A stretch of DNA of 64,000 bases from Candidatus Moraniibacteriota bacterium (GTDB lineage Bacteria > Patescibacteriota > Minisyncoccia > Moranbacterales > UBA1568). The translations under genes and the position numbers were made by a program. The notes beneath the pieces were generated by a model. The model ran no database searches. It was given only the letters and a program-made list of their open reading frames with translations, and was not told the origin of the DNA. Location: positions 702-64,701 of the forward strand of contig JBPOIA010000021.1 of assembly GCA_052034975.1 (NCBI GenBank). Direction: 5' to 3'. Positions within the stretch are counted from its first letter, which is position 1. Each line of letters begins with the position of its first letter. Shown here piece by piece: positions 13,799 through 51,431 of the stretch.

Positions 13799-13804
13799 TG
13801 CTCT

Positions 13805-14686: not shown

Positions 14687-14692
14687 ACTCCC

Positions 14693-16953: not shown

Positions 16954-17246
16954 ATGCGGGATGTCGTTTTTGTATTTTTATACATTGTGAGTATATCATT
17001 TTTTATTTTCTCCGACAACACAAAAATGAATGGTATTTACCCCGAAGTAAGCCGCGGGGTATTCTCCCCCATGTTCCCATCACTCGCTCGGGAATGAAAA
17101 GGAGGATTTATCTCTTGGTAAATAAAAACATCCCTCAAAAATGCCGCGATGTTTCAAAAAATTCTTTTCTCAAGTTTTTCCTATCAAAAAACTGATTCTC
17201 AGTGCTTTTTTCCAAAATATACATTCTTTACATCACAAACAAAAAA

Positions 17247-19250
17247 TTAAACAACGTTTTTATGTTTTGTCAATACTATCAAAGAAGAGGAGGCCATCAA
17301 TCCAAATGATACCCAAAAAAGCAACTGGCCTTGTTGTATATCAAAAAAATAGTGATCAAAAAACATAATCACAAGAATAGATATTACAACAGATTTAGTC
17401 ATAATTGTCAATATTTCTTCTTCTAATGTTCCACGTGGAACATCTTTAAGATTCTCTTTCAAATCTTTTTGCTCAGAATGTTCCACGTGGAACATTTCAT
17501 TGTTTTTATACAAATGTAATATTTTAAAGAAAAATGTTCCACGTGGAACATTTCCTGAAAAAACAACTTTAATAAAAAAGAAAAATGTCGCTAATCCTAT
17601 TATACCAAGTTCCGACAAAACGATCAGGTAAACATTATGTACTGGCTGAAATTGCCATATGAGAAGTTGAGTATCAAAAAATCGATGCATACCATAAACA
17701 GACTGTCCTATACCCATACCTATAATTGGGCTTTCCTGAAAGGAATTCCATACTGATCTCATTAAAAATAGCCTTTCCTCCATAGACTGAACAAAGAAAT
17801 AGTTCCAATTTATTGCTTTAAATAAAGCAATAAATAATACTATCCCTAAAAATACAAACAAATGTTCCACGTGGAACATTTTTATATATTGTGAAAATGT
17901 TCCACGTGGAACATTTTCTAAGTGTTTATTAACGCCTGTTTCAATAAATACTTTCTTCTTAAAAAGTGGTTTATATGCAAAAATGTTCCACGTGGAACAT
18001 TTTTTTGATATCGCATTCAATATAGCCTTCGAAGAATTAAGGATAAAGAATGTTCCACGTGGAACACTTAGGCTCTCAAAAGCCTTGTTACCCATAAAAT
18101 GTTCCACGTGGAACATTTTATAAATACAAAATCCAAGATATATCCCTCCAATAAGAAGGCCAAGAATTGCTGATTTTGAAAATGTACAAATAAGACAAAG
18201 TAGCTGGATAAAAAGTGCCAATCTTAAAAACCATCTATTTTTCAAATGTTCCACGTGGAACATTTGATTATTTCTGTGGAATAGCAGTGGATAAACTGCC
18301 GTTATGAGTATAGTTATCACCAAAAACCCCCCTAATATATTTGGATGAGGAAAAAACGCATAGGATCTGACAAAGGCCTCATTTTCAATAATAACCTTTG
18401 CTATTCCAACATCTGAAACCGAAAAAATGCTTTCTTTCAGAAAAGTAAATCCCAATGATCCTTGCTTTAAAAACTGTAAAATTCCAAAAAATGCTTGAAA
18501 CAAGCCTAAAAATATAAGTATTCTGAGTAAAGGTTCAAATATGTTCCACGTGGAACATATTGATATCTCCTTACAATGTTCCACGTGAAACATTTGATTA
18601 TTTTTTTCAACACCAGGATCTTTCTTTAAAATGTTCCACGTGGAACATTTTTTTGATATCGCATTTAATAGTGCCTTCGAAGAATTAATACTAAAGAATG
18701 TTCCACGTGGAACATTTTGATTTTTATCAATATCAACATCTTCATTAAAAAGTACTGGTTGGTTTTTTATGCCTTCATTATTGAAAAATGTTCCACGTGG
18801 AACAAAATAAAGAATCAGAGTTACATACAAAAGATATCCTTCTGAAAGCTTTGCTAAGGCATAAAAAGCAAGTATTCTATTTTCTGACCAAAAAATAGAG
18901 GCTGTGGACCATAGTATGAACAAAAGTGGAGCAAGTATGAAAAAATAAAAATGTTCCACGTGGAACATTTTCTTCCAATTATGTATTGACAATATATAGT
19001 TTTTATTGTTTAATATAAAAACTATGATAAAAGCTGCCAGTGTCAAATCCGAAAGATACAGTGAGAGGTCGGTATATTCATTAAACTGACCTTCCTCGGT
19101 TAGCGGAAAAAAGGTGAAAACTTTCCGGATCGAGAAGGGGAGTGTAAGAAGGAAAAGTCCGAGCAACCATCGTTCCGAAACAGCTCTCATTGCAGCGGAG
19201 GGTTCTGTCATAAGCGGTCTTTTGGGATTCTTTTCATTATACAGAAACAT
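17247..19250 (-). CDS. O-antigen ligase (Wzy_C) family membrane protein interrupted in-frame by 15 palindromic repeat copies; possibly a pseudogene
   Basis: 719-aa ORF open across an AT-rich repeat array. Wzy_C signature PVHNVYLIVLSELGIIGL and a TFSKSAILGLLIGG segment. The track N-terminus overlaps tRNA-Ala, so the start is placed at an internal Met (MFLYNEK). Confidence 0.5.
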   Translation of the reverse strand: MFLYNEKNPKRPLMTEPSAAMRAVSERWLLGLFLLTLPFSIRKVFTFFPLTEEGQFNEYTDLSLYLSDLTLAAFIIVFILNNKNYILSIHNWKKMFHVEHFYFFILAPLLFILWSTASIFWSENRILAFYALAKLSEGYLLYVTLILYFVPRGTFFNNEGIKNQPVLFNEDVDIDKNQNVPRGTFFSINSSKALLNAISKKCSTWNILKKDPGVEKNNQMFHVEHCKEISICSTWNIFEPLLRILIFLGLFQAFFGILQFLKQGSLGFTFLKESIFSVSDVGIAKVIIENEAFVRSYAFFPHPNILGGFLVITILITAVYPLLFHRNNQMFHVEHLKNRWFLRLALFIQLLCLICTFSKSAILGLLIGGIYLGFCIYKMFHVEHFMGNKAFESLSVPRGTFFILNSSKAILNAISKKCSTWNIFAYKPLFKKKVFIETGVNKHLENVPRGTFSQYIKMFHVEHLFVFLGIVLFIALFKAINWNYFFVQSMEERLFLMRSVWNSFQESPIIGMGIGQSVYGMHRFFDTQLLIWQFQPVHNVYLIVLSELGIIGLATFFFFIKVVFSGNVPRGTFFFKILHLYKNNEMFHVEHSEQKDLKENLKDVPRGTLEEEILTIMTKSVVISILVIMFFDHYFFDIQQGQLLFWVSFGLMASSSLIVLTKHKNVV
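17427..18967. repeat. Array of 15 copies of the perfect palindrome TGTTCCACGTGGAACA (extended AATGTTCCACGTGGAACATT)
   Basis: Copies start at approximately 17427, 17479, 17535, 17863, 17898, 17984, 18051, 18100, 18247, 18542, 18577, 18632, 18699, 18789 and 18952. Two are slightly degenerate. The palindrome is stop-free in all frames. Confidence 0.9.
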
Positions 19251-19330
19251 ACGCTTTTGTGAATGCTTCGCTGATACGGCCATACAGGGTTGACGAAACT
19301 TCCGTGACAGGTATGATACAAGGGTGTCTC

Positions 19331-19403
19331 GGGCCATTAGCTCATCTGGTAGAGCGCATCCATGGCATGGATGAGGTGGCCGGTTCGAGTCCGGCATGGT
19401 CCA
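19331..19403 (+). tRNA. tRNA-Ala (anticodon GGC)
   Basis: Acceptor GGGCCAT with the G3:U70 Ala identity pair. Anticodon loop ATGGCAT. T-arm GCCGGTTCGAGTCCGGC. Confidence 0.85.
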
Positions 19404-19409
19404 CAAAAA

Positions 19410-19440
19410 CAGACGCCTCTTTGGGGCGTTTTTGTTTTAC
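19410..19440 (+). terminator. Intrinsic terminator after tRNA-Ala
   Basis: ACGCC tctttg GGGCGT followed by TTTTTGTTTT. Confidence 0.5.
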
Positions 19441-19560
19441 TTAAAATGAGAGCATTGATACTATGGAAGAAGTATGATAGAGTTCCTCTCTGCCTCCCAT
19501 CGCTCAGTGGGTTCCGGCAGATACGGGACTGATCATCTCTGAGCACAAAAGACGAGAAGC

Positions 19561-19632
19561 GCCCTTGTAGTTCAATGGATAGAACGGGCCCGTCCTAAGG
19601 GTTTGATGTAGGTTCGATTCCTGCCAAGGGCA
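19561..19632 (+). tRNA. tRNA-Arg (anticodon CCT)
   Basis: Acceptor GCCCTTG/CAAGGGC. Anticodon loop GTCCTAA. T-arm GTAGGTTCGATTCCTGC. Two G-U pairs in the anticodon stem. Confidence 0.7.
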
Positions 19633-19717
19633 CTCATTTTATCTCGAGTTCCCGGTCAGATAGACAGGGGCTTCTCAGACGTAAAAGCCGGCTTATACAA
19701 CGTTGTCCACCGATATG

Positions 19718-20050
19718 TCCTCTCATCGCATCGCAAAAGTCAATGAGCTTGTCCGTCAGCAGTTGGCGGAAATTATGGAGCGAGAACTCTCTTTGAAGCA
19801 GGGTGTGTTTGTCACGATTGCAAAGGTTGACACCTCAAAAGACCTCCGCTATACTCGCGTGTCCGTGAGCGTTTTTCCCGAAAGAGAGGTTGGGTACGTG
19901 ACGGAGACGCTAAAGAAAGAGTTGCCGGTATTGCAAAAATCCCTCTTCAGAAAACTCTATATGAAGCCTTCGCCGCGCCTTTCATTCGAGATCGATCGAA
20001 CCGAAGAAAAGGCTGACGAAGTCGAAAGGATCCTCAAGGATCTCTTCTAA
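19718..20050 (+). CDS. rbfA: Ribosome-binding factor A
   Basis: RIAKVNELVRQQLAEIM...DLRYTRVSVSVF is RbfA-like. Start taken at MSSHR. Confidence 0.85.
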   Translation, partial: SSHRIAKVNELVRQQLAEIMERELSLKQGVFVTIAKVDTSKDLRYTRVSVSVFPEREVGYVTETLKKELPVLQKSLFRKLYMKPSPRLSFEIDRTEEKADEVERILKDLF

Positions 20051-32417: not shown

Positions 32418-33458
32418 ATGACCAATATACACGCCAACAAGCTGTTCAATCCGGCCGGAAATGACGACGTGGCTGTCCGTACGATCATCAAAGGCTCGAC
32501 GACGGGACTCTTTAACCTGAACGCAACCAAATACCCGTGGGCCAAATCGCTCTACCAGGTGATGGTCGGAAACTTTTGGGTGCCGGAAAAGGTTTCTGGA
32601 CTCAAGGACGATGCCCGGATGTTCCATACCGAGCTTTCACCCGAGGAACAGCGCGCCTACAAAGGCATTCTCTCGTTCCTCATCTTCCTCGACTCCATCC
32701 AGACCGTGAATCTTCCACATTTCGCGGATTACGTCACGTCGCCGGAAGTGAATCTTATTCTCTCGATCCAGGCCTATCAGGAAGCTATCCATTCGCAATC
32801 CTACGCTACCATCCTCGAATCGGTCGTGGAAAGCAAGGAGCGCGACGAAATCTACTATTTTTGGCGCGACGATGCAATCCTCCTCGATCGCAACAAATAC
32901 ATTGGGGCCATCTACCAGGATTTCATCGATCACCCCTCTGATAAGAGTTTCTTCCGCGGTATCGTCGCGAATTTCCTCCTCGAGTCGGTCTATTTCTACA
33001 ACGGATTCGCGTTCTTCGACACTTTGGTCGACCATATGAAGATGCTCGCCACTGGAAGAATGATCGCATACATCCGACGCGATGAACTGACGCACATTAC
33101 CATCTTCTCTAATCTGATCCGCGAAATCCGACGCGAATTTCCCGATATTTATGACGAATCGATCGTCCGTGAAATGATGAATGTCGCCGTCCTGCAAGAA
33201 ATCGAGTGGAGTCGGCACATCCTCGGCAACCGCATCCCGGGGTTAAACGGGGAAACGACCGAGATCTATACCAAGTGGCTCGCCAACAACCGACTCGCGA
33301 TGCTCAATATCGATCCGCTCTACCCGGAAGCGGTCAATAACCCCTACAAGCATCTCGAGCGCCTACAAGACACGAACAGCGACAAAGGAAATTTCTTCGA
33401 AACCACCGTCGTCAATTACACCCAGTCTTCCAGTCTCAACGGAAGTTGGGACTTCTAG
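32418..33458 (+). CDS. nrdB: Ribonucleoside-diphosphate reductase small subunit (ferritin-like, class I)
   Basis: Di-iron ligand helices (ESVYFYNGFAFF, EAIHSQSY, RDELTHITIF). Confidence 0.85.
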   Translation: MTNIHANKLFNPAGNDDVAVRTIIKGSTTGLFNLNATKYPWAKSLYQVMVGNFWVPEKVSGLKDDARMFHTELSPEEQRAYKGILSFLIFLDSIQTVNLPHFADYVTSPEVNLILSIQAYQEAIHSQSYATILESVVESKERDEIYYFWRDDAILLDRNKYIGAIYQDFIDHPSDKSFFRGIVANFLLESVYFYNGFAFFDTLVDHMKMLATGRMIAYIRRDELTHITIFSNLIREIRREFPDIYDESIVREMMNVAVLQEIEWSRHILGNRIPGLNGETTEIYTKWLANNRLAMLNIDPLYPEAVNNPYKHLERLQDTNSDKGNFFETTVVNYTQSSSLNGSWDF

Positions 33459-33659
33459 AACGGTCGACACTTCTTTCACTTCGAAAAATGAAATTTGGTG
33501 TGGTATAATAGAATCACATCGTCTTTCTTTATGCCCGGTAGTAGAATTTCGACCGGCATCAATAAAAACTCAGACAAAACAGGAGCTCACATAAATTCTA
33601 TCAAGCCGGACTTTCGATAATGTCTTGAAAGAAAAATTGTCGAAGTTTCACTACCGGGT

Positions 33660-34523
33660 ATGCGCAAAAACAAAACATTCATTCGAACGCTTCTGTTTTT
33701 CTTCGCGACGGCCGGTTTTCTCTTCGCTCTTCAAGCCGATGCCCAGAGCCAAGGACTCCAATATACGCTTTTGGAAAAGATTCCGGGCGTTCCAAGCGTC
33801 GGAAGCGACCTTAAGAGCTACGTCGAGGGCATCTATCGGATGGCGCTCATCATCGTCACGCTCTCCGCGGTTCTGATGCTTTCCATCGGCGGTTTTATGT
33901 ATCTCACAAGCGCTGGCAATACCTCGTCGGCCGCGACAGCTAAAGGCATCATCTGGGACTCCATCATCGGCCTCGCCATCGCGCTCGTCGCCTGGCTTAT
34001 CTTAAATGTCATCAATCCCGATCTCGTCAATGTCACCTTAAACGGCTTGTCGGTAACGAGTGTCGGGATGCAACCGACCGGACCGGCTCCGACGCCGGGC
34101 ATCGGCGCCGGGTGCAGCGGATATTCCGTCGTCGGCATCTCTAGTAGCCAGTGTAACGACGCTTCACAGAAACTCGCCGACATTCTTGCCTGTATGCGCG
34201 GCCATTACCCAAGCGCACAAATAACCAGTATTTCCGACAGCGGAGGATTCTCGACCTGCAAGAACAACTACAGCTCTCCGCCCTGCGCCCATAGCCGAAC
34301 ATCCTGCCACTATGGCGGCGGAGCGACACAGACCGGCAGCGAGTGCCAACAATCCCTCGCTGCGGACATTTCCATCAGAAACAGCGGCGGACAGGTAGAT
34401 CTCTCCATCGCCCAGGCCGTCAAATCGGCCGCCTCCGCCTGCGGAGCGCGCGTCAATGACGAGTCCGCAGGAGCCCATCCGCATATCCATATCAGCGCTC
34501 CCAGTAGCTGCTGTTCGCTCTAA
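33660..34523 (+). CDS. T4SS-pilin-like (TrbC/VirB2-type) membrane protein fused to a Cys-rich C-terminal domain
   Basis: Signal peptide. Pilin-like hydrophobic pair ...ALIIVTLSAVLMLSIGGFMYLTSAGN...AKGIIWDSIIGLAIALVAWLIL. C-terminal ~130 aa carry about 10 Cys plus H-rich AHPHIH, a possible metallopeptidase-like fold. Confidence 0.5.
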   Translation: MRKNKTFIRTLLFFFATAGFLFALQADAQSQGLQYTLLEKIPGVPSVGSDLKSYVEGIYRMALIIVTLSAVLMLSIGGFMYLTSAGNTSSAATAKGIIWDSIIGLAIALVAWLILNVINPDLVNVTLNGLSVTSVGMQPTGPAPTPGIGAGCSGYSVVGISSSQCNDASQKLADILACMRGHYPSAQITSISDSGGFSTCKNNYSSPPCAHSRTSCHYGGGATQTGSECQQSLAADISIRNSGGQVDLSIAQAVKSAASACGARVNDESAGAHPHIHISAPSSCCSL

Positions 34524-34543
34524 GCTTCTCTCTTCGAATTGCT

Positions 34544-35683
34544 ATGAAAAGGGTCTTTTATGTGTCTTTGGGTATTCTCGTGTTGACGCTTATCTTTTTG
34601 GCTGCGTACAACTTCATTTTTCGCCATAATGCGAATGATCCGATAGCCGATAAGGAGAAAAAAGAGGATATCAAGGAAGAATCAGCGAGCGAGAATGCCC
34701 GCTCAGCGGAAAAGATCCTAAGTGTCATCAACGAAACCGTCCTTGGTGCCACAAGCGGTGACGACACACTCTATTACTATTCGCTCGATGACCAGTCGCT
34801 CAAAAAAGCTTCCTTGGAAGGCAAAGACAAGGAGATCCTGATGAGCAATCTTCCGGGCACACCAGCCAGGATCCTTTGGTCGCCGAAACGCGACCGTGCC
34901 TTGTTGCTGCTCAGCCAGTCCGGCGGGACGGCTCTTTGGTATTTTGCCGATTTTCAGATCAAGACCCTCGTTCCGCTCAAACCCGAAATGTCGAGACTCT
35001 CCTGGGACAACATCGGCGATCGGATCATCTACCAGTATACCGACACCAAGACCGGCGCCCGTTCTCTTAACACAGCCGCCCCAGATGGAAGCGGTTGGAA
35101 GAGGCTCGCCGACCTGAAAGACCAGGATTCTTTCTTTGCTCCCGTGCCGAAAAGCACCCTGATCTCATTTTGGAATCGTTCCAATGCCCTCGAAAAAACG
35201 TTTTTTGAGACCATCGGTATCACCGGCGAGAATCGACGTGTCCTTCTTACCGAAAAATTCGGAGCGGATTATCTGTGGTCACCGAACGGCAACCGGGTCC
35301 TCGTAAGCACCAGCGACCAAAAGGGCGGTCACTCGCTCCTTCTCAGTGTTATGAATCAGAACGGCGGGGAATTCAAGAATCTTTCCATCCCGACATTCGT
35401 AGCAAAAACCGTCTGGTCAAAAAACGGATCAGTTCTCTATTATGCTCTCCCCGGATCGCTTCCGGAGAACGCCGTCCTCCCCAACGATTATTTTGGCCGA
35501 CCTCTGTACACAAAAGACACTTTTTGGAAGATAGATTTGGAAAACGGAAAAAAAACACGCCTCCTCGACCTGGACGAAGTCTCGCAGGGCTTTGACAGCA
35601 CAGACCTCTTTCTCTCGTCGTCCGAGGACGCACTCTTCTTTACCGATCGGCAAACGAAACGTCTCTATCGTATCGACTTGTGA
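34544..35683 (+). CDS. Membrane-anchored TolB-like beta-propeller protein
   Basis: N-terminal TM helix. Repeated WSP[NK]G/LYY propeller blades (LWSPKRDRALLL, WSPNGNRVLV, WSKNGSVLYY). Confidence 0.55.
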   Translation: MKRVFYVSLGILVLTLIFLAAYNFIFRHNANDPIADKEKKEDIKEESASENARSAEKILSVINETVLGATSGDDTLYYYSLDDQSLKKASLEGKDKEILMSNLPGTPARILWSPKRDRALLLLSQSGGTALWYFADFQIKTLVPLKPEMSRLSWDNIGDRIIYQYTDTKTGARSLNTAAPDGSGWKRLADLKDQDSFFAPVPKSTLISFWNRSNALEKTFFETIGITGENRRVLLTEKFGADYLWSPNGNRVLVSTSDQKGGHSLLLSVMNQNGGEFKNLSIPTFVAKTVWSKNGSVLYYALPGSLPENAVLPNDYFGRPLYTKDTFWKIDLENGKKTRLLDLDEVSQGFDSTDLFLSSSEDALFFTDRQTKRLYRIDL

Positions 35684-36936
35684 TCTTCAAAAGTTTTTCC
35701 GGCCGGTTCGTTTTCCACGAATCGGTTTTTTGTTGTCGTGAAGATCAGCGCGATCAGGAGCCAAAACGAAAACGCCGAATCGGTTCCGAAATACGGGGTA
35801 TCCACAAGGCCAGAAACCAAAAAAAGAACGAGAAGCGAACCGAGAATCTTTAGAAGTGCCCGGATCTCTCCGTTAGATGTTTCTTTGTATGTCCGGTACA
35901 GACAGATGAAGGCTCGTAAAAGCAGAAGCAGGAACCCGATAAGCCCGAGGAATCCGGTTTCAAGCCATACGGCCAAAAACAAATTGTGCGGCTCAGGAAC
36001 CGCCCATTCGAGATATGGGGGAAAGTATTTCTGATATGACAGGTACTCTTCCTGAAACCGACCGAGACCGATACCAAGCACCGGGTGATCGGCGAGGACG
36101 CTTCCTGCTGCGTGCCAGATCATCACTCGTGAGGCAAGCGAGGAGCGTTCGTCAAAGGAGATGAGTGAGTGCCATTTTTCAGTCCCTCGCTCAAAAAACA
36201 CTGCCACCAAGCAAAAAAGTATGAGAACTATCGCGATACCGCCTTTTCCTCGACGTCCGGACGTGAAGAAAAATACCAAGAGAGAGAGAAGAGTCGCCAC
36301 CCAAACACCGTATGAGCGTGTCAGAAAAATAGCGGCAATCACGAGTGCGCCCGAAACCATAAAGAGGGCCTTTTGGCGAATCGCCGCTTGAACAGAAAAA
36401 GCTTGTTCCAAAAAATATGCGGCCAAAGGGACGCCCGGAGCGAGAAAGAGTGCCAGAAAATTTGGCGAAGAAAACCAGGCCTCTAAGCGTCCGTCGTATG
36501 TCATTCGCCCGTCAAAGAAAAACCACAAGCTTCCGATCGACGAAGATACGGTAACGAAAAGCCATGCCAAAAGAGATCGCTTCACGGCTGTGCGCGACAA
36601 CGGTACAAGAAGAATGAGCACAGCCATCAAGGTCGGAAAGAAGAACCAGGTCTTGAAAAGTCCGAGCGATTTGAACGAGAGCGGATGGACAAAAAGAGAA
36701 AGGAGCGTACCGAACAGAAATAAGGCAGTAGCGAAAATTGCCCAACGATCAGGAGACGAGTTTTGTCCGTGCCAATAAGATCCTTGGACGCCCAAAAACA
36801 GCACGAGGAGAAGAATCACTCCTCCTTCGGGCGTATAGAGAGGCAAGCCGAAAACATCCGTTTTCAGCCGAGCAAAAGGAAGCAAAAGAAACATTCCGGC
36901 GACACAAAAAGAAAGGAGTCTCAATGCGAGCGGCAT
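35665..36936 (-). CDS. O-antigen ligase (Wzy_C) family membrane protein
   Basis: Polytopic. Wzy_C signature EPHNLFLAVWLETGFLGL. Confidence 0.7.
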   Translation of the reverse strand: MPLALRLLSFCVAGMFLLLPFARLKTDVFGLPLYTPEGGVILLLVLFLGVQGSYWHGQNSSPDRWAIFATALFLFGTLLSLFVHPLSFKSLGLFKTWFFFPTLMAVLILLVPLSRTAVKRSLLAWLFVTVSSSIGSLWFFFDGRMTYDGRLEAWFSSPNFLALFLAPGVPLAAYFLEQAFSVQAAIRQKALFMVSGALVIAAIFLTRSYGVWVATLLSLLVFFFTSGRRGKGGIAIVLILFCLVAVFFERGTEKWHSLISFDERSSLASRVMIWHAAGSVLADHPVLGIGLGRFQEEYLSYQKYFPPYLEWAVPEPHNLFLAVWLETGFLGLIGFLLLLLRAFICLYRTYKETSNGEIRALLKILGSLLVLFLVSGLVDTPYFGTDSAFSFWLLIALIFTTTKNRFVENEPAGKTFEDHKSIR

Positions 36937-41377: not shown

Positions 41378-41881
41378 CTAGATAGCCGGGGATTCATCGG
41401 CGACCGGCTTCGGACGCACCATTATCTTTCGTTCGGTTCCCTTGCCGACGCTTTCCGTAAATACACGGGTGTCCGTATGCAGATACGAATGGATGATCTT
41501 CCGCTCATAGGGAAGCATCGGGCGCAAGGCGACGGAAATATTGTTCAGCAAGACTTCATCAACCGCTTTCTTTGCCTCGCGTTCCAGCGTGGATTTCTTT
41601 TCCATAAAATAATCGTTCACGTCGATGATGACGTTTATGGATTCGCCGGTCTGCTTGCGAAACAATGATCGTACTAGATGCTGGACCGCTGCCAGATTCG
41701 CCCCGTACTGACCAATAAGAAAATGCTGATTCTCTTCTACCCGTACGGAGCACAGGAGCGTTTCTTGGGTTTCTTCAAGAGGGGAAATTTCGATATGGCG
41801 TATCTGAAAATCCATCTTCTCAAGAAGTTTCATCACGATGTCCTTCAGAATATCTGCGTTGGATGTTTCCATACGATTCAT
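41378..41881 (-). CDS. Jag/KhpB-like RNA-binding protein (KH + R3H)
   Basis: Conserved position downstream of yidC. R3H-like YERKIIHSYL. KH-like N-half. Confidence 0.65.
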   Translation of the reverse strand: MNRMETSNADILKDIVMKLLEKMDFQIRHIEISPLEETQETLLCSVRVEENQHFLIGQYGANLAAVQHLVRSLFRKQTGESINVIIDVNDYFMEKKSTLEREAKKAVDEVLLNNISVALRPMLPYERKIIHSYLHTDTRVFTESVGKGTERKIMVRPKPVADESPAI

Positions 41882-41882
41882 C

Positions 41883-42608
41883 TTACGCCTGTTTCGGCTT
41901 AAAAATATACATCTGCTGAAAAATCATAAACAGGGTCGAGAACAGCCAGTACAAGGACAGGGCGGCCGGAAACGTCGCGCCGATAAAGAGCGTCAACCCG
42001 GGACCAAGATAGAGCATCTGCTTATTCATTATAGCCGCAAAATCCGGCTCATCGGAAGCGGATGATGCCGATGAAGTAGCTTTTTGGCTCTGTAAAAGCA
42101 TTTTTGTCTGATAATACTGGGCGGCAGCCGAGAGAATTGCAAAAACGTAACTTGGCTTCGTAAGATCGACTATGTTCATAAAAAGATGCCCGATATTTCC
42201 AGGATTGGAGATAAAGGCGTACAAATCAGCCTGATTCACGACTAAACCGGCCTGGGAAATGTTCATAATCACCCGGTAAATAGCGATGAGGAAAACGAGC
42301 TGGATGATGAGCGGAAGGCAGCCGGAGAACGGGTTTACCTTGTTCTCCTTATAGAAATCCATTATGGCGCGCGTCTGTTTTTCCTTATCGTCCTTGTGTT
42401 TTTTCTGGATTTCCTTTATTTTCGGCTGAATTTCCTGCATTTTCTTCTGCGACTCTATCTGTTTTTTGGAAAGTGGGATGAATAATGTCTTGATGACGAG
42501 GGTCGTAAGAATGATAGCTATACCAAAATCCTGTCCGGGAACGGTATTATAGAAGAATATGAGGATATTATAGAGTGGCTGATAGATGAATATGTCGAAA
42601 AGGGCCAT
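41883..42608 (-). CDS. yidC: Membrane protein insertase YidC (short Oxa1-type)
   Basis: LYNILIFFYN, IIL[TL]TLVIKTLFIPLS and NPFSGCLPLIIQ are YidC core motifs. Confidence 0.85.
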   Translation of the reverse strand: MALFDIFIYQPLYNILIFFYNTVPGQDFGIAIILTTLVIKTLFIPLSKKQIESQKKMQEIQPKIKEIQKKHKDDKEKQTRAIMDFYKENKVNPFSGCLPLIIQLVFLIAIYRVIMNISQAGLVVNQADLYAFISNPGNIGHLFMNIVDLTKPSYVFAILSAAAQYYQTKMLLQSQKATSSASSASDEPDFAAIMNKQMLYLGPGLTLFIGATFPAALSLYWLFSTLFMIFQQMYIFKPKQA

Positions 42609-42619
42609 ATCTCTTTGTA

Positions 42620-42961
42620 TTAATTCGGATAAATTTGTCTTAAAAACCCATTAAAAACCTGTTGAATAGCCTCTTTTGTCCTATTTCTTGGCCTCTTCGT
42701 AAGAAAAAAAACAATATCTACTCCCTCAGAGGGACCTTTCTGAAAAAGTATCCTTAGCGTTTCTGAAAAAGTGCGCTTCAAACGATTCCTCTCGACAGCG
42801 GTCGGAACATACTTCTTACTCAAAGAAAACCCGACTTTTGGCTTATTTTCAGTATTTTTAACGTATCGGCAGCCTATTTCTTCAAAAAAAAGGGGTCTTC
42901 CGCTACGAAATACCCTATCGAAATCCTCCTTTTTTTTCAACCGGAATCCCTTTTTTAGCAT
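42620..42961 (-). CDS. rnpA: Ribonuclease P protein component
   Basis: LKKKEDFDRVF...VGFSLSKKYVPTAVERNRLKRTFSE matches the RnpA RNR motif region. Confidence 0.85.
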   Translation of the reverse strand: MLKKGFRLKKKEDFDRVFRSGRPLFFEEIGCRYVKNTENKPKVGFSLSKKYVPTAVERNRLKRTFSETLRILFQKGPSEGVDIVFFLTKRPRNRTKEAIQQVFNGFLRQIYPN

Positions 42962-42964
42962 ATT

Positions 42965-43105
42965 TTAAGCTACCGAAAGCTTTTTTCTTCCGGAAGCACG
43001 TCGACGGGCGATCACTTTTTTCCCGCCTTTCGTGCTCATTCGCTTCAAAAATCCATGGCGACGCGAGCGCTTACGGGTTTTCGGCTGATATGTTCTCTTT
43101 GGCAT
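42965..43105 (-). CDS. rpmH: 50S ribosomal protein L34
   Basis: Not in the ORF track. Reverse complement translates to [46 protein letters not shown]. Confidence 0.9.
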
Positions 43106-43290
43106 ATCATTTTGAAATAAATTGATTTAGCTCTGATAGTTTATGTAGTGTATCTAAAAAAGAGAGAAAAGTCAATTTATAAGGAAAAAGTGCACTTATT
43201 CACTTCTTATCCACTTTTTTAGCATCTTTTAGCTTCGCTACGAAGGTTTTTATCTGTTATAATGAGTTTTGCTGTTGATAATTTTCCTCT
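43106..43290. other. Putative oriC segment upstream of dnaA
   Basis: DnaA-box matches CTTATCCAC (~43208) and TGTTGATAA (~43275). Conserved rpmH|dnaA junction. Confidence 0.5.
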
Positions 43291-44709
43291 ATGACGAACG
43301 AGGAGCTTTGGAAAGCCGTTTTAGGACAAATTGAACTTTCCATATCGAAAGCGAATTTTATCACGTGGTTCAAGAATACCGCTATTTTAAATCGTCAAAA
43401 TGGGTTAGTGACCATTGGTGTTCCAAATGGATTTGCAAAGGAATGGCTCGAAAATAAGTATAATCACTACATCTTGAAAGCCTTAAAAAGCCTTGATTCT
43501 GATATAAATGAGATCCGTTGTATTCTTTCTATTGAAAAACCTCTCTCTCAAGGCATCGACTCTGTTAAAAATACCACTCCTTTAAAGTCGTCTGATGTTG
43601 CAACCGGCTTCGTAAGAAAAAAGCTCCTGGAAAAGCCTATTTTTACCGATCAACAACAAAGTACGCCGGCATTTCATGAAACAAACCTCAATACCCGGTA
43701 CACTTTTGAGAATTTTATTGTAGCTGAAAACAATGAGCTCGCTCGGGCAGCCTGCTACGCCGTTTCCCAAAATCTCGGTGCCGCCTATAACCCGCTTTTC
43801 ATCTACGGCGGTGTTGGTTTAGGAAAAACACACCTTCTCCAATCCATCGGGAATGAAGTTATCAAAAATCATCCAGAAAAACGCATTAAATATATCACTT
43901 CCGAGCGCTTTACCACGGAATTAGTGGATTCTATTAAAAATCAAAAAATCGACCGCTTTAAGGAATATTATCAACAGATGGATCTTTTAATTATTGATGA
44001 TGTACAATTCCTTTCTGGGAGAGAAAAGACTCAGAATGAGTTTTTCCATATCTTTAATTCCCTTTATCAGATCAATAAGCAGATTGTCATTTCAAGTGAC
44101 CGACCACCAAAATCCATCCCTACTCTTGAGGAGCGCCTCCGTTCCCGCTTTGAAGGCGGAATGATCACGGATATTAGCCGCCCGACCGTAGAGACAAGAA
44201 TTGCTATCTTAGAGGCAAAAATAGCCGAAAAGGGCTTTCTTCTCGATACCCCAGCTATCCGATTTATCGCGGAAAATATCACTCAAAACATTCGAGAACT
44301 TGAGGGGGCGTTAAACCGGGTGATGGCTTTTTGTGAATTTCATAAGATTCCACCCACTCTTGAAACAACCCAAAAAATCCTCCATCAGCTTATTCAAAAT
44401 AACAAGAAAACTCTTCAAATAGACGATGTTTTTTCTGTCATCACGGAATATTATACTCTCACTAAAGATGATCTCGTCCGGAAAGGAAGAAAAAAAGAAA
44501 TTTCCCATCCGCGACAAGTGATGATGTACATCTTACGAAAAGAACTTGAGATGCCTTTTTCCGCTATTGGGGAATATCTCGGGGGGCGCGATCATACAAC
44601 CGCACTCCATGCATTTGAAAAAATAGAGAAAGGAAAAGAAGAAAATTTACGATTAAAAGAAGAACTTTCTCTCCTTTATGAAAGATTATATTATTCTCAG
44701 AGTGGATAA
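43291..44709 (+). CDS. dnaA: Chromosomal replication initiator DnaA
   Basis: AAA+ Walker A GGVGLGKTHLL. Sensor motifs. C-terminal DnaA-box-binding HTH (...HTTALHAFEKIE...). Confidence 0.95.
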   Translation: MTNEELWKAVLGQIELSISKANFITWFKNTAILNRQNGLVTIGVPNGFAKEWLENKYNHYILKALKSLDSDINEIRCILSIEKPLSQGIDSVKNTTPLKSSDVATGFVRKKLLEKPIFTDQQQSTPAFHETNLNTRYTFENFIVAENNELARAACYAVSQNLGAAYNPLFIYGGVGLGKTHLLQSIGNEVIKNHPEKRIKYITSERFTTELVDSIKNQKIDRFKEYYQQMDLLIIDDVQFLSGREKTQNEFFHIFNSLYQINKQIVISSDRPPKSIPTLEERLRSRFEGGMITDISRPTVETRIAILEAKIAEKGFLLDTPAIRFIAENITQNIRELEGALNRVMAFCEFHKIPPTLETTQKILHQLIQNNKKTLQIDDVFSVITEYYTLTKDDLVRKGRKKEISHPRQVMMYILRKELEMPFSAIGEYLGGRDHTTALHAFEKIEKGKEENLRLKEELSLLYERLYYSQSG

Positions 44710-44949
44710 GGTTGTATAAATAAAAGAAAGAGGTGTATAAGAGTTTAATAAGAAAAAGAAAAAAGGGTATATTTTATTAAAAAAGAAAAATATTTCTTTT
44801 TATCCTTATAAAGTGTGGATTTTTATAAGAGATATCAAGGACTTCTTTTTATAAAAATCCTAAAAATAAAGCTTAAACTAACTTTATTCAGATATTCACC
44901 GAAGTAATGATAATAATAATTTCTTAATATATATACTCTATTATTTTTT
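44710..44949. other. AT-rich dnaA-dnaN intergenic region; probable DNA-unwinding element with DnaA-box variants
   Basis: Over 75% AT. Carries TTATCCTTAT and AAGTGTGGATTTTTA (ATCCACA core). Confidence 0.45.
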
Positions 44950-46098
44950 ATGAAACTTATCTGTACTCAAGAAAATCTTCAAAAAGCCCTTTCTTACCTA
45001 GAGCGTGTTGTTGGAAAACAAAGTACTCTTCCGATCCTGAGTAATTTTCTTTTAGAGACTGAAAATGGGAGATTAAAGATTTCTGCGACAAATCTTGAAA
45101 TTGGAGTGATTGTCTATATAGGGGCGAAAATAGAACAAGAAGGAAAAATAGCCATTCCAGCAAAATTATTAATGAATTTTATTTCTAATCTTCCTTATAG
45201 TGATGTTGTGGAGCTCTCTACGGAGAATTTTGTAATACATATAACCACCCCAACTCATCAAATGAAAATAAAAGGATTAAATGGGAAGGATTTTCCTATT
45301 ATTCCACAATATAAAAAGGAATATTTTTTCTCTTTTCCGGCACAAAAACTAAAAAATGCGCTTACAAGGGTACTTTTCTGTGCGAGTATAAATGAAGCTC
45401 GATTAGAACTTACGGGAGCACATATCTTCTTTTTTCAGGATTCTATCCATCTTGCAGCAACGGATAGTTTTCGGCTTGCGGAAGAAATTATCCCTTTTAC
45501 GGAATATGGTGAAGGATATCTTTCTTTCTTACAAAATACCCCATCACTCATACTCCCTCTTCATACACTTCAGGAAATTTCTAGAGTGATCACTCCTGAA
45601 AGTAATGAGGTAAAGATAGCACTTGAAGAAAATCAGATATTTTTCGAAGTCGATGGTGTACAAATCATCTCACGGATTATTAATGGAAAATATCCAGAAT
45701 ATAAACAAATTATCCCACAACAATTTACTCTCCAAATCATCTTTCAGAAAGAGATTTTTCAGCGCGCGATAAAGATAGCGAGTGCCCTCTCAATGTATAA
45801 CGAAAACGAGATAACCCTTTCTTTTGATCCGAGAAATTCACAATGTACAGTCACTTCGGTATCAAAAGAAGTCGGGGAAAATGTCACGACACTCCCAATA
45901 GAATTTTTTGAAGGAAAAACGCCGCTTACAATAACATTTAATCCACGATACGTGCTGGAAGGAATAAATGCTCTTGGAGGAGAAAAAATACTTTTTCTTG
46001 CGAATACAGAAGCAACCCCTGCGGGTATGCGAATGATGAAAGGGGAGCGCGAACCAGAACAGAATTATCTTTATATTCTGATGCCGATCAGGAAATAA
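44950..46098 (+). CDS. dnaN: DNA polymerase III beta sliding clamp
   Basis: MKLICTQENLQKALSYLERVV...LPILSNFLLE N-terminus. Three-domain length. Confidence 0.9.
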   Translation: MKLICTQENLQKALSYLERVVGKQSTLPILSNFLLETENGRLKISATNLEIGVIVYIGAKIEQEGKIAIPAKLLMNFISNLPYSDVVELSTENFVIHITTPTHQMKIKGLNGKDFPIIPQYKKEYFFSFPAQKLKNALTRVLFCASINEARLELTGAHIFFFQDSIHLAATDSFRLAEEIIPFTEYGEGYLSFLQNTPSLILPLHTLQEISRVITPESNEVKIALEENQIFFEVDGVQIISRIINGKYPEYKQIIPQQFTLQIIFQKEIFQRAIKIASALSMYNENEITLSFDPRNSQCTVTSVSKEVGENVTTLPIEFFEGKTPLTITFNPRYVLEGINALGGEKILFLANTEATPAGMRMMKGEREPEQNYLYILMPIRK

Positions 46099-46395: not shown

Positions 46396-46442
46396 AGCAT
46401 CATTTTTTGATCCAACGGATGCGGTATAATAAGGAAGAGAAT

Positions 46443-48956
46443 ATGGATTTTTTTAAGAGAAAAAGAGTGATGCCATCAGACACCCTGAAAAAAGGGAAAG
46501 TTTGGTTTTGGATGAAAAGAGGAATAATTTCCGTTTTTCTTCTCGGATCCGTCGTCACGATAAGCGCGTTCGCATATATAGCGAAAGATCTTCCGAGCCC
46601 GGGCAGTGTAAATAAACGCGTCATCATCGAATCGACGAAGATTTATGATCGGACCGGCAACCATCTTCTTTATGAAGTACACGGGGAAGAAAAACGAACG
46701 ATCATCCCATTCGAACAAATGCCGGAAGTCGTACGTGCCGCCACGCTCGCGCTGGAAGATCAGGATTTTTACAATCACCACGGGATAAAGATCACCTCCA
46801 TCATCCGTTCGATTTTAAAGGATCTTGTGCAGTTTAGTAAATCACAAGGAGGATCGACCATCACTCAGCAGTTCGTCAAAAACTCCCTTCTCTCAAACGA
46901 GAAGACCATCATTAGAAAGATTAAGGAAGTCATTCTTTCGCTTGAGATGGAGACAAAGTTCTCAAAAGACGAGATTCTCGCGATGTATCTTAATGAAATC
47001 CCGTATGGCTCGAATGCCTACGGCATTGAAGCGGCTACGCAGACGTTTTTCGGAAAGCCGGCTCGGGAGCTTACGCTCGACGAGGCCGCGCTTCTCGCCG
47101 CGCTTCCACAGGCGACGACATATTATTCGCCCTATGGATCACACATCGATGCACTCATCGCAAGAAAAAACCACACGCTCCGGACGATGGCAAAACTTGG
47201 ATATATCACCGAAGAGCAGGCCGAACAGGCAGTGGAGGTGAAGACGTTGGAAAAGATCAGTCCGCAGAAAGATATCATCGCTGCACCGCACTTCGTGATG
47301 TATATCAAGGATATCCTCCAGCAGCGGTATGGCGACAAGGCTATTGAGGAAGGGGGTTTAAAGGTCATTACGACACTTGATTGGGAAAAGCAACAAATCG
47401 CCGAACAGGCCGTCCGCGAGGGCGTGGAGAAGAACACAAAATGGAAAGCGGAAAATGCCGCGCTCGTGGCTATCGACCCGAAAACTGGTCAAATCCTCGC
47501 GATGGTCGGCTCGAAGGATTATTTCGACAAATCGATCGACGGACAGGTAAATGTGGCTATCCGTGATCGTCAGCCGGGATCATCGTTCAAGCCGTATGTT
47601 TATCTCACCGCGTTCACGAAGGGATATCTGCCGGAGACGATGCTCTACGACGTGAAGACGCAGTTCGAGACAGCGGAAGGAAAAAGTTACGAACCGAACA
47701 ATTATGACGGAAAATTTCACGGACCGTTGCCGATGAAGAAAGCGCTTGGAGGGTCGCTTAACGTTCCAGCAGTGAAAACACTTTATCTTGTCGGCGTAAA
47801 AGATGCCACCACGCTCGCAAAAAATCTCGGGATTACCGGACTGAATGACCCGAGTCGGCTCGGGCTCTCGCTCGTACTGGGCGGTGGGGAAGTGAAACTC
47901 CTCGATCATGTGAGTGCGTATGCCACGCTCGCGCAGGGCGGTGTGAAACATCAGAAATCCGCCATTCTCCGCATCGAGGACACGAAGGGAGCCGTTCTCG
48001 AGGAATTTAAGCCGGATGCCGGCGAACGTGTTGTCGAGGAGAAGTATGTCGCGATGCTGGATTCGGTGCTCTCGAACAACGAGAATCGGGCGTGGGTATT
48101 TGGCGATAAGAGTCCGCTCCTATTCGAGAGCCGGTCGGTTGCCGCGAAAACAGGGACGACGAACGAATTTCGCGACGGCTGGACGATCGGGTATACGCCG
48201 TCCTTGGCTGTTGGCGTTTGGGCGGGGAACAATGATAACTCACAGATGGTTGAGGGTGCCGATGGCGTCAATGTCGCCGCGCCTATCTGGAGGACGTTCC
48301 TTGATAAGGCGCTCGCGAACTATGCCATCGAGGAGTTTCCGAAATACAACCCCGACGACGAGATTGGTGACGGGGAAGGAAAGACGAATAAGCCGATGCT
48401 GGCCGGAAAGCTTGAGGAGAAAGAGGATGTGAAGGTTTGCGAGATCCCAGGGAAGGATGATAAGTATTGTCTGGCGAACAAGTATTGCCGCGATAAGGAC
48501 GTCGAGAAAAAGGATTTCATCAGTCCGCACGATATCCTCTATTATGTGAATCGCGACGAGCCCCGTGGTCCGGTGCCGGATAAGCCGGAGCGCGACCCGC
48601 AGTATAAGAATTGGGAGGAGGCGGTGAAGGATTGGTACAAGAAGCAGAAAGGCATCATATTCGCCGATCCGCCGAAAGACGATTGTGACAAGGATGATTT
48701 TGAGAAGTATCTTCCGAAAGTGGAGCTTACGGTTCCCGGAAGCGTTTCTTCCTCGTCGCTTCCTCTTAGTGCGGACATCGACGCGCCGTACGGTACCAAG
48801 AGCGTAAAATATACCGTCGAAGGACACGATGCCGGCTCCGGCGGATCGTATGACGTGTCGAGCTATAACGGTTCAACGATCACGGTGAAGGTAGAGGTGG
48901 AGGACGATAACGGGAACGAAACCTCCGACCAGAAATCCGTCAGTGTGAGTTTTTAG
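46443..48956 (+). CDS. Class-A penicillin-binding protein (bifunctional transglycosylase/transpeptidase) with C-terminal extension
   Basis: GT51 motifs (EDQDFYNHHGI, RKIKE). TP motifs SSFKP, SLN and KTGTT. GGAAGAG RBS. About 150 aa of acidic/Cys-containing C-terminal tail. Confidence 0.85.
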   Translation: MDFFKRKRVMPSDTLKKGKVWFWMKRGIISVFLLGSVVTISAFAYIAKDLPSPGSVNKRVIIESTKIYDRTGNHLLYEVHGEEKRTIIPFEQMPEVVRAATLALEDQDFYNHHGIKITSIIRSILKDLVQFSKSQGGSTITQQFVKNSLLSNEKTIIRKIKEVILSLEMETKFSKDEILAMYLNEIPYGSNAYGIEAATQTFFGKPARELTLDEAALLAALPQATTYYSPYGSHIDALIARKNHTLRTMAKLGYITEEQAEQAVEVKTLEKISPQKDIIAAPHFVMYIKDILQQRYGDKAIEEGGLKVITTLDWEKQQIAEQAVREGVEKNTKWKAENAALVAIDPKTGQILAMVGSKDYFDKSIDGQVNVAIRDRQPGSSFKPYVYLTAFTKGYLPETMLYDVKTQFETAEGKSYEPNNYDGKFHGPLPMKKALGGSLNVPAVKTLYLVGVKDATTLAKNLGITGLNDPSRLGLSLVLGGGEVKLLDHVSAYATLAQGGVKHQKSAILRIEDTKGAVLEEFKPDAGERVVEEKYVAMLDSVLSNNENRAWVFGDKSPLLFESRSVAAKTGTTNEFRDGWTIGYTPSLAVGVWAGNNDNSQMVEGADGVNVAAPIWRTFLDKALANYAIEEFPKYNPDDEIGDGEGKTNKPMLAGKLEEKEDVKVCEIPGKDDKYCLANKYCRDKDVEKKDFISPHDILYYVNRDEPRGPVPDKPERDPQYKNWEEAVKDWYKKQKGIIFADPPKDDCDKDDFEKYLPKVELTVPGSVSSSSLPLSADIDAPYGTKSVKYTVEGHDAGSGGSYDVSSYNGSTITVKVEVEDDNGNETSDQKSVSVSF

Positions 48957-50024: not shown

Positions 50025-51431
50025 TTATTTGCTTATATCGACGAGGAACCTACGGAGATGTTTCCGTCCGATGATGACCGGGTATTCAAGATGAGAGCGG
50101 TCGATAACCGATACCCGCGCCGGAATCTCAACGGTGTCCATAATGAAAGAGATCCGTATCTTCGGCCGCATCGAGAACCCATTCGATGAATAAACGAAAG
50201 AAACGCCGTCAAGGTCCGGATGTGCCCCCTTATACTGCACATCATAGCGGTCGGAGAGGGCGGTAAGATCGGCGCGTTCTCTCGCTTCTGGCTTCGGAAT
50301 CGTTTCAAAAAAATCAAGCACGTCGCTGAAGCCGAGTTCGCGGGCAAGTTCGGTGTCGATGGAGGTGGAGTCGGCGCCGGTGTCGATCTTGGCCTGTGTT
50401 TCGATTTCCTTGCCATCCTTGCCGATGAGCTTCACTTTTTCGACCGAACCGACGACGCGTTTGCCGGAAAGTTCCTCGATTTCCTCTTCGATCTCTCCGC
50501 CGAAGAGATTCTGTCCGACGCGCACGCCGCGCTCAGTGGTTTTGATGGAGAGTCCGGAGACGCGCTTCAACCGGTCGCGCAGACCGGAGAGGTTGGCGAG
50601 CTGGATGGAGAGTCCGGGACGTGCGTTTAATTCCAAAATAACCGGTCCTTGCTCACGATCGATCGAAATGTCCGCACCGAGAAACCCGAGTCCGGAAATC
50701 TCTTGGGCGCGCACCGACATTTGCAAAATATCTTTCCAATAAGGAATCTTGATACCCGAAAGGGCCAAGCGCGTGCCGGGCACGTACTCGATAACATGAC
50801 TTTTACCGAGGATGGCGCTTGTCGTCGTGCCGGTAGCCAGGTCGATGCCGACACCGATCGCTCCTTGCTGCAAGTTGGCCTTGCCGTCGGACTCTTTGGT
50901 CGGAAGGCGAAGCATCGCCATCACGGGGACGCGATTGAAGACGATGACACGGATGTCGGGGATGCCGCGATACGCGTAGGGCTTGAAAAGCTTGAGCAGT
51001 TTCAACCGTTCCTCAAAAAAAGCGGTATCGGGAATATTTGCGAGCGAGAATGATCCGTCGAGGATGTTCTGGATATGGATCTTGATATCCTCGATCGTCA
51101 CCATCGATCCGTCAGCTTTGACCCAGGCGTCATCGCGCCCCTTCTTGCGCGCGTAGACGACCAAGATGCCCTCGCCGCCAAATCCGCGGTTGGGTTTGAG
51201 CGCGAAGCTCGATGGCAGCGTCGACCAGTCGAATTCGTCAAGCTCGGTATGGTTTCTGATCTTCGCGACGAGACCCGGCGTAGCGAGGCCGTTTTTCTTG
51301 AGTGTGCGCTTCGAGAGCAGCTTGTCATCAGCAAGACGCTTCCCGCGCTCTCGGTTGTACGGGCGGGTATATTCTAGGTTGCGCGCGTTCATACCGAGTA
51401 GCCCGCGGCTTTTTTTGAGGAAGTCGAACAT
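50025..51431 (-). CDS. ATP-grasp ligase (sugar-transfer-associated type) fused to a C-terminal retropepsin-like (putative ATP-dependent zinc protease, DUF785-like) domain
   Basis: N-half ALKPNRGFGGEGILVV ... ILELNARPG. C-half AKIDTGADSTSID with an aspartyl-protease-like DTG. Confidence 0.65.
   Translation of the reverse strand: MFDFLKKSRGLLGMNARNLEYTRPYNRERGKRLADDKLLSKRTLKKNGLATPGLVAKIRNHTELDEFDWSTLPSSFALKPNRGFGGEGILVVYARKKGRDDAWVKADGSMVTIEDIKIHIQNILDGSFSLANIPDTAFFEERLKLLKLFKPYAYRGIPDIRVIVFNRVPVMAMLRLPTKESDGKANLQQGAIGVGIDLATGTTTSAILGKSHVIEYVPGTRLALSGIKIPYWKDILQMSVRAQEISGLGFLGADISIDREQGPVILELNARPGLSIQLANLSGLRDRLKRVSGLSIKTTERGVRVGQNLFGGEIEEEIEELSGKRVVGSVEKVKLIGKDGKEIETQAKIDTGADSTSIDTELARELGFSDVLDFFETIPKPEARERADLTALSDRYDVQYKGAHPDLDGVSFVYSSNGFSMRPKIRISFIMDTVEIPARVSVIDRSHLEYPVIIGRKHLRRFLVDISK

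Follow-up and report, generated by a model that had tools for sequence, protein, structure and literature searches.

Type IV secretion systems (T4SSs) are widespread in Patescibacteria, are often found at the replication origin, and are essential for epibiotic growth in the one species tested; their role has been described as completely unknown (PMC11665869, PMC10633639, PMC12102498). In Ca. Southlakia epibionticum an array of pilin genes is essential (Wang et al. 2023, PMC10633639), as are the peptidase and lysozyme genes that adjoin virB4 (PMC12102498). Pfam family PF18895 holds the VirB2-like pilins from candidate phyla radiation (CPR) bacteria, from Mycoplasma integrative and conjugative elements, and from monoderms. 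VirB2-like pilins occur in 1,948 CPR assemblies, most of them without a recognisable VirB1, and of the 15 Moranbacteria assemblies on the opening page of that study's Table S1, 13 have VirB4 (Quinonero-Coronel et al. 2025, PMC12102498). Here we describe two adjacent open reading frames, ORF A and ORF B, in a 64,000-nucleotide stretch from a Candidatus Moraniibacteriota bacterium (assembly GCA_052034975.1, contig JBPOIA010000021.1, positions 702 to 64,701); we call the whole stretch the window, and coordinates refer to it. ORF A (33660..34523, + strand; 287 aa) consists of a signal peptide, a VirB2-like pilin hairpin, a Pro-rich linker, and a Hedgehog/LAS-like Cys-rich domain; ORF B (34544..35683, + strand; 379 aa) consists of an N-terminal transmembrane anchor, a disordered linker, and a beta-propeller. 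With a probability of roughly 0.6, we think that the pair is a T4SS-associated module in which a pilin-anchored peptidoglycan hydrolase plays a VirB1-like role from a VirB2-like hairpin, with the propeller as its partner.

With the VirB2-like pilins already described from Patescibacteria, ORF A shares PF18895, the signal peptide, and the two-helix hairpin (Quinonero-Coronel et al. 2025, PMC12102498), and its relatives, like those pilins, form tandem arrays beside VirB4, PrgI, and VirB6-like genes near dnaA (PMC12102498, PMC10633639). The described pilins are small, whereas ORF A has a 140-aa enzymatic-type C-domain; unlike the described arrays, ORF A is present in a single copy and is unlinked to VirB4 in the window. 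The hydrolases of monoderm T4SSs, TraG (pIP501), PrgK (pCF10, with LytM, SLT, and CHAP modules), and CD419/TrsG, resemble ORF A in being membrane-anchored and in drawing on a parallel set of modules. TraG is VirB1-like, with SLT and CHAP modules (PMC12102498). TraG and PrgK have a simple transmembrane anchor, whereas proteins of the ORF A type bear a single module on a VirB2-like hairpin; the LAS module of ORF A is of the Hedgehog/M15 type and that of PrgK of the LytM/M23 type, and sequence homology between TraG or PrgK and the pilin fusions is restricted to SLT variants.

The C-domain of ORF A is comparable to the Hedgehog N-domain, to its bacterial counterpart bacHh, and to MEROPS family M15 (Roelink 2018, PMC6027127): it shares their His/His/Asp/Glu/His-x-His constellation and order of secondary structure, and the profile match extends over the whole catalytic half. 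In bacHh the domain forms the extracytoplasmic C-terminal portion of a membrane-anchored protein (PMC6027127), the position that the C-domain of ORF A would also have. The N-terminal half of the Hedgehog N-domain remains unaligned, ORF A differs from Hedgehog in its 10 Cys and in an H-to-D spacing of 18 rather than 6, and its identity to Sonic Hedgehog (Shh) is far under the >50% reported for bacHh (PMC6027127). The components of this locus are of kinds already known: CPR VirB2-like pilins, LAS zinc peptidases, the wall hydrolases of T4SSs, and PD40 propellers. An earlier note on this stretch, made from the letters alone, stated that such pilin-like fusions are reported from episymbiotic bacteria. 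The literature we searched does not bear this out; it describes arrays of CPR VirB2-like pilins and not pilin-hydrolase fusions, and it holds no description of a pilin hairpin with swappable hydrolases, of the Hedgehog-like C-domain family, or of the propeller partner. The Pfam accessions PF18895 (T4SS_pilin) and PF18896 (SLT_3) are adjacent, which suggests that curators had seen a fusion of pilin and lysozyme, so that the concept is not wholly unseen.

The C-domain of ORF A

The C-domain (residues 149-287, 139 aa; 34104..34520, + strand) is unannotated: no Pfam model covers it or any of 79 members of its family. In the AlphaFold2 (AF2) model of ORF A, which was built on an alignment of 72 sequences and has a mean predicted local distance difference test score (pLDDT) of 84.4, the fold of this domain is predicted with confidence, at a pLDDT of 92-98. 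All 10 Cys of ORF A lie within it (residues 152, 165, 178, 200, 209, 216, 229, 261, 284, and 285), along with 6 His; the earlier description of the tail as Cys-rich was accurate, and that of it as His-rich overstated. The two motifs singled out in the same description, SCHYGGG...AADIS and AHPHIH, are present and hold the family's most strongly conserved positions. The first lies in the block H211...S215-C216-H217-Y-G-G-G, followed by a 12-residue insert with C229 and by A-A-D236-I-S (34290..34367, + strand), and the second in the block E268...H273-P-H275-I-H277 (34461..34490, + strand). In a non-redundant alignment of 79 C-domain sequences (A5, which also served as a profile), H217, D236, and H277 are invariant, and H211, S215, C216, G220, E268, and H275 are conserved in at least 90%.

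The relationship to Hedgehog emerges at the level of profiles. Searches of Pfam and the PDB with the single C-domain sequence returned nothing significant, and a profile of 21 C-domain sequences matched Hedgehog N-domains in the PDB at E 0.4-0.9 (13-15 bits), which is not significant. In an exhaustive HMMER search the 21-sequence profile retrieved 466 representative clusters at E<=1e-3; a profile search with a word-indexed database, a poor tool for a Cys-rich domain, gave 8 matches. Against all PDB sequences the significant matches of the A5 profile, at E 4.3e-6 to 3.2e-5 with a best score of 30 bits, were without exception Hedgehog N-domains, 23 distinct sequences from Sonic, Indian, and Desert Hedgehog; the next match fell at E 0.9. 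The match became significant only once the exhaustive search had yielded diverse members of the family, and the rise from 13-15 bits with 21 sequences to 30 bits with 79 diverse ones is what real homology predicts.

The alignment of A5 with Shh pairs H217 with H141, D236 with D148, E268 with E177, H275 with H181, H277 with H183, and H211 with H135, the auxiliary His of the Shh active site. In Shh the zinc ligands are H141, D148, and H183, and the general base is E177 (PMC6027127). The elements of secondary structure correspond one to one and in order: the QITS strand to LRVT, the AADIS strand to AVDIT, helix 248-260 to Shh KYGMLARLAVEAG, the ARVNDE strand to WVYYE, and the HIHIS strand to HIHCS. 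The H-x-H motif of the third ligand in LAS enzymes is present as H275-I-H277, and the positions of the catalytic Glu and auxiliary His are occupied by E268 and H211.

Several results weigh against reading this domain as a LAS enzyme. ORF A lacks the LAS motif H-x6-D: 18 residues separate its His and Asp, against about 12-13 in most family members. No M15 or HH_signal model of Pfam matched the C-domain of ORF A or four of its relatives, and among the 79 members of A5 the sole match to such models was one to Peptidase_M15_3 at E 0.19. Whether Hedgehog itself acts as an enzyme is debated, and likeness to it is therefore no proof of catalysis. The spacing we attribute to a loop insertion, because two homologous variants of the domain, variant 3 and sf2, do carry H-x6-D. 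The C-domain family aligns with variant 3 in hhalign at 92.8% (E 4e-7), and variant 3 has the canonical S-x-H-Y-x-G-x-A-x-D-I ... H-I-H, with weak matches to Peptidase_M15_4 (E 0.17-0.23) and to Hedgehog (E 0.1). A further type, variant 5 (GGTE...H.SHG...VD...HFH), was not linked to the family by hhalign and found no match in the PDB; its LAS assignment is by motifs only, and we leave it aside. The first guess of an M15-like peptidase thus stands at the level of the superfamily, on the Hedgehog match (E 4e-6) and the alignment to variant 3, although the spacing is not 6. By profile comparison, then, the C-domain is a divergent, putative LAS-type zinc hydrolase, homologous to Hedgehog and LAS proteins. 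We would expect zinc to be bound through H217, D236, and H277, with E268 activating water and H211 and H275 assisting.

In nearly all of the 466 clusters the C-domain sits C-terminal to a region of pilin size; in some it is N-terminal to PF18895 or is fused with PKD, Glucosaminidase (PF01832), or 3D domains. The family is restricted to Patescibacteria-type metagenomic proteins. One 1658-aa Cys-repeat protein (P0296) was a spurious match and was excluded. A 969-aa protein from outside the window (P0310) combines a LAS-like domain with PKD domains and T4SS_pilin in a metagenome-assembled genome labelled Candidatus Altiarchaeota, which is either a case of mis-binning or a sign that the module exists in archaeal episymbionts.

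The pilin-like hairpin and secretion-system loci of relatives

The N-terminal half of ORF A is organised much as the earlier note had proposed. A signal peptide (residues 1-29; 33660..33746, + strand) can be read as MRKNK, a hydrophobic core, and the junction ADA/QSQ, the presumed site of cleavage; the AF2 model has a helix at residues 5-27 and a low-confidence segment at 27-35. Next comes a pair of hydrophobic helices with a short polar loop between them, as in PF18895 proteins generally. The hairpin (residues 58-118; 33831..34013, + strand) matches Pfam PF18895, T4SS_pilin, at E 2.7e-6, and its 27.8 bits exceed the gathering threshold of 26.6; many homologues of ORF A carry a precomputed match to the same family. 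AF2 places the helices at residues 51-83 and 88-118 (pLDDT about 80-88), within which SIGGFMYLTSAGN...AKGIIWDSIIGLAIALVAWLIL fall. The loop, GGFMYLTSAGN...AK, is nearly invariant among homologues, and M73, G77, G78, Y81, S84, A85, G86, A94, K95, and D100 are invariant across 36 of them. The Pro/Gly-rich linker that leads to the C-domain (residues 123-148; 34026..34103, + strand) is predicted at a pLDDT of 53-60, falling below 50 at residues 127-134, and varies among homologues in length and sequence. These homologues extend over the full length of ORF A down to about 40% identity, and in Candidatus Moraniibacteriota they are named "pilin."

Other results count against a pilin identity or fall short of it. 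The PF18895 score is barely over its threshold, TrbC/VirB2 (PF04956) gave no match to ORF A at E<=10, and a profile of 59 diverse N-domain sequences detected no solved VirB2, TraA, or Ced pilin in the PDB. The NCBIfam model NF045849 (Mbov_0395 pilin-like conjugal transfer protein) matched ORF A at E 6.3e-5, under its cut-off, and Foldseek returned a weak match to the Aeropyrum pernix conjugation pilus 8dfu (probability 0.44, E 3.1). We have therefore rejected TrbC/VirB2 proper as the family of ORF A: of the TrbC/VirB2-type N-domain originally proposed, the pilin-like part is retained through PF18895 and the kinship to PF04956 and to solved pilins is not. We use the label "T4SS pilin" because of the Pfam family and the genomic context, and not because of similarity to characterised pilins. 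Neither of the results named in the earlier note as refuting it came about: the N-domain scores as T4SS_pilin above the gathering threshold, and the fold of the C-domain is conserved and predicted with confidence. Five homologues (P0019, P0020, P0098, P0105, and P0248) have Cys-rich repeat modules of 100-200 aa between signal peptide and hairpin, perhaps additional domains for extracellular binding; ORF A itself has none.

The genomic context comes from relatives. Two contigs, L006 and L007, located through divergent members of the C-domain family (P0258 and P0252), carry in order TrbL_3 (VirB6-like), a gene of another kind, PrgI (VirB3-like), a TraC-like gene, VirB4, two further genes, a 969-aa gene, a pilin-SLT fusion, in some cases a plain pilin, a pilin-LAS fusion, an orthologue of ORF B (36-39% identity, E ~1e-80), and Wzy, and they continue past Wzy to rnpA, rpmH, and dnaA. 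The N-domain of ORF A resembles the pilin-SLT gene of these loci, and its C-domain the pilin-LAS gene. The link to a T4SS that the hairpin had implied is thus borne out by synteny in related Moranbacteria, where the pair directly follows the cluster of VirB6-like, PrgI, TraC-like, and VirB4 genes. A scan of species-representative genomes for the VirB4 of these loci yielded 80 loci, many of them labelled Moraniibacteriota or Moranbacteria and the others Parcubacteria, Patescibacteria, or unclassified. ORF B lies downstream of the T4SS core in 31 of the 53 VirB4 loci with at least 8 kb of downstream sequence, and of 37 loci that have ORF B, 35 have a pilin-like gene immediately upstream of it. 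The tail of that pilin belongs to the A5 family in 14 loci and is missing in 6, where the pilins are plain and short; elsewhere it is another LAS-like variant, SLT (E 1e-6 to 1e-13), SLT_3 (28.9 bits against a gathering threshold of 27), or a weak CHAP/NlpC_P60 match. Between VirB4 and the pilin genes lies a protein of 900-970 aa (L006:6096-9005 and L007:5751-8435, 39% identical to each other), which matches nothing in Pfam and is a candidate for an uncharacterised T4SS component.

The window itself looks different, and the difference supplies the strongest competing explanation: that ORF A is a housekeeping autolysin, a membrane-tethered endopeptidase for growth and division of the cell's own wall, with the hairpin as a mere anchor, ORF B as a regulator or scaffold, and no part in a T4SS. 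No relative of a T4SS core gene is found in the 64 kb. The pair stands amid nrdAB, sodA, and ahpC on the one hand and surface-glycan genes on the other (two Wzy genes, two GT2 genes, and a flippase), with yidC and a PBP1 gene (46407-48956) beyond. ORF A is single and outside any pilin array, and no connection between its N-domain and solved pilins could be detected. The arrangement is also stable: five other genomes have the order ahpC, sodA, nrdA, nrdB, pilin-X, ORF B, two Wzy genes, two GT2 genes, and flippase, and one locus (L001) runs on through Jag, YidC, rpmH, and dnaA.

What tells against a housekeeping autolysin is the position of the orthologous pair elsewhere, directly after the VirB4 core in those 31 of 53 related loci and usually within a tandem pilin array. 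The neighbours from Wzy to dnaA are identical in both arrangements, and the housekeeping context is therefore what remained after the T4SS core had moved. One genome, GCA_016182385.1, contains both parts: contig L003 has the window-type arrangement, with the pair adjoining nrdB, and another contig, L077, has an intact T4SS core (7981-15673) consisting of a 404-aa gene, PrgI, a TraC-like gene, VirB4, a 223-aa gene, and the 969-aa gene. The core ends right after the 969-aa gene, where pilin genes would begin, and neither pilin nor ORF B follows. From this we conclude that the window's lineage split the cluster at one precise point, between the core and the module of pilin-hydrolase and ORF B. 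Frequent swapping of peptidases and glycosidases at one locus would also be unusual for an essential growth enzyme. We consider the autolysin explanation unlikely, if deserving of serious attention.

Interchange of modules and the role of ORF B

Among 125 close relatives that share the N-domain of ORF A, 52 have the same C-domain; 21 have a variant with the pattern CHxNGTCAD...YE...FHV, which falls within the same HMM family, 51 have other LAS-like variants, and one has SLT (E 3.6e-11). At least five LAS variants are represented. The tails carried by these hairpins (LAS peptidase, SLT/lysozyme-like, and CHAP-like) parallel the hydrolases of Gram-positive T4SSs (PMC12102498), which counts in favour of a wall hydrolase.

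ORF B is the constant element. It begins exactly 20 bp downstream of ORF A on the same strand. Its AF2 model (pLDDT 86.4, predicted template modelling score 0.80) has a transmembrane helix at residues 2-27, a disordered acidic/basic linker at 28-57, and a beta-propeller of about 28 strands at 58-379; WSPNG occurs at residue 245, and Foldseek matches the model to propellers in the PDB at E 3e-11 to 1e-8, among them tricorn, oligogalacturonate lyase, and TolB. The membrane-anchored propeller expected downstream of ORF A is therefore present as the earlier note had it, and its TolB-like character holds for the generic fold. ORF B and TolB are alike in the C-terminal propeller (Foldseek E ~1e-9) and the WSPNG-type blade motif, and several homologues are named "Tol biopolymer transport system component" by JGI. 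The N-terminal alpha/beta domain of TolB is absent from ORF B, however, where a transmembrane anchor takes its place; the tricorn and oligogalacturonate-lyase propellers match as well as TolB or better; and no tol or pal gene is found among the neighbours of ORF B, in an organism that is monoderm. We have rejected membership in the Tol-Pal system and, because both the TolB N-domain and the Tol-Pal context are absent, regard ORF B as a PD40-type propeller, although Pfam PD40 gave no significant match. Over more than 120 homologues its identity is 56-75%, higher conservation than that of ORF A.

A promoter-like site (TCGAAA-17-TATAAT with a TG extended -10; 33481..33509, + strand; 10/12 matches) lies about 150 nt 5' of ORF A in the 200-bp gap behind nrdB (32418-33458), and a terminator-like hairpin with an 11-bp stem and a T-run (35701 to 35727 or 35737, + strand) begins 18 nt past the stop codon of ORF B. 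Both are consensus matches; with the 20-bp spacer they suggest that ORF A and ORF B are a bicistronic unit. The pairing of these open reading frames is not due to chance: ORF A has 199 homologues and ORF B has 385, and they are neighbours in every locus examined.

A constant N-domain with interchangeable heads raises the possibility of a polymorphic antibacterial or anti-host effector, in which the pilin-like N-domain would traffic a swappable wall-degrading toxin and ORF B would be immunity-like. The five or more LAS variants and SLT among the 125 relatives, with the SLT_3 and CHAP-like tails of other T4SS loci, do resemble C-terminal toxin polymorphism, and peptidoglycan hydrolases are classic interbacterial effectors. 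CPR bacteria, moreover, are thought to use lytic enzymes to compromise the envelope of their hosts (PMC11665869). The behaviour of ORF B is at odds with an effector: compared with the window's ORF B, orthologues beside other module types are 65-67% identical and those beside the same type 63-64%, so that ORF B does not track the C-module and a toxin/immunity pair is disfavoured. ORF B is also a 379-aa membrane propeller that follows plain short pilins in the 6 loci without an enzymatic tail, and on these grounds we have rejected it as a cognate immunity protein; the 20-bp gap leaves no small gene between the two that might serve instead. The hairpin would in addition keep the domain tethered to its producer unless it were cleaved or polymerised. 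We regard an effector as quite improbable.

Least probable of all, to our minds, is a non-catalytic ligand or adhesin on a pilus or the cell surface, whose zinc cleft would bind a host glycan or protein, or ORF B, in adhesion or signalling: by sequence, its significant structural relatives are indeed Hedgehog ligands and nothing else, and relatives of ORF A do combine the domain with PKD adhesion-type domains and N-terminal Cys-rich repeats, but every catalytic residue, including the general-base Glu, which Drosophila Hedgehog lost along with its zinc ligands (PMC6027127), is kept across 79 diverse sequences, and the domain is interchangeable with the bona fide hydrolases SLT and SLT_3 and is found fused to Glucosaminidase and 3D domains.

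Proposed function and the surrounding window

If the pair is a T4SS-associated wall-hydrolase module, as we favour, ORF A would be exported by Sec and its signal peptide removed. The two hydrophobic helices would enter the membrane as a VirB2-like hairpin whose conserved GN...AK loop points to the cytoplasm. The C-domain would then lie on the outer side, and five disulfides could form in it there. As its substrate, the likeliest candidate would be a peptide bond of peptidoglycan, in either the stem or the cross-link. ORF A would in this way supply the wall cutting for which monoderm T4SSs use proteins of the VirB1/PrgK/TraG type, fused here to a VirB2-like subunit, and the wall, whether the cell's own or that of a host, would be opened at the very place where the hairpin polymerises or is seated in the membrane. 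The constant companion of the pilin genes, ORF B, is probably a scaffold, an assembly factor, or a regulator. The part in cell-cell interaction that the earlier note proposed for the pair is conjectural. The most economical formulation would be that in Moranbacteria a VirB1-type function has been fused to VirB2-like proteins, and that the pilin set has in ORF B a conserved accessory.

A broader proposal is more of a long shot. The "pilins" of patescibacterial T4SSs might in general be carriers of interchangeable wall-cutting heads, such that a polymerised filament decorated with enzymes would digest its way through the peptidoglycan of the host or of the cell itself, and swapping of heads would tune it to the chemistry of the host wall; ORF B would then be a conserved, hitherto unrecognised part of the apparatus, and the C-domain family a large prokaryotic branch of the Hedgehog superfamily.

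Elsewhere in the window, positions 41378-46098 are the chromosomal origin region, with jag (R3H) and yidC on the minus strand, dnaA at 43291-44709, and dnaN at 44950-46098; GC content drops there to 35-40%, and the minimum of the cumulative GC skew falls in the same region. The gene order of L001 would place rpmH beside yidC. A 1007-aa ORF on the minus strand (55796-58819) has two T2SSE (PilB-type) ATPase stretches and an MshEN domain; it represents either a double ATPase produced by fusion or two genes from a type IV pilus cluster that have been merged. Also on the minus strand, a 719-aa Wzy_C (O-antigen-ligase-like) protein (17247-19406) lies in a stretch of low GC content (16000-20000, about 40%, where the window as a whole has about 51%) that is possibly an acquired surface-glycan island, and a 468-aa protein (50025-51431) joins a sugar-transfer-associated ATP-grasp domain (E 2e-67) to a C-terminal Zn_protease-like segment.

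The locus suggests where the VirB1-type activity of these organisms may reside, at least in Moranbacteria: in swappable modules carried on VirB2-like proteins. ORF B becomes a conserved candidate for a T4SS accessory, and an unannotated family of 466 clusters, remotely homologous to the zinc domain of Hedgehog, is due for addition to curated databases. In a larger context, these fusions provide concrete candidates for the means by which ultra-small episymbionts may open cell walls.

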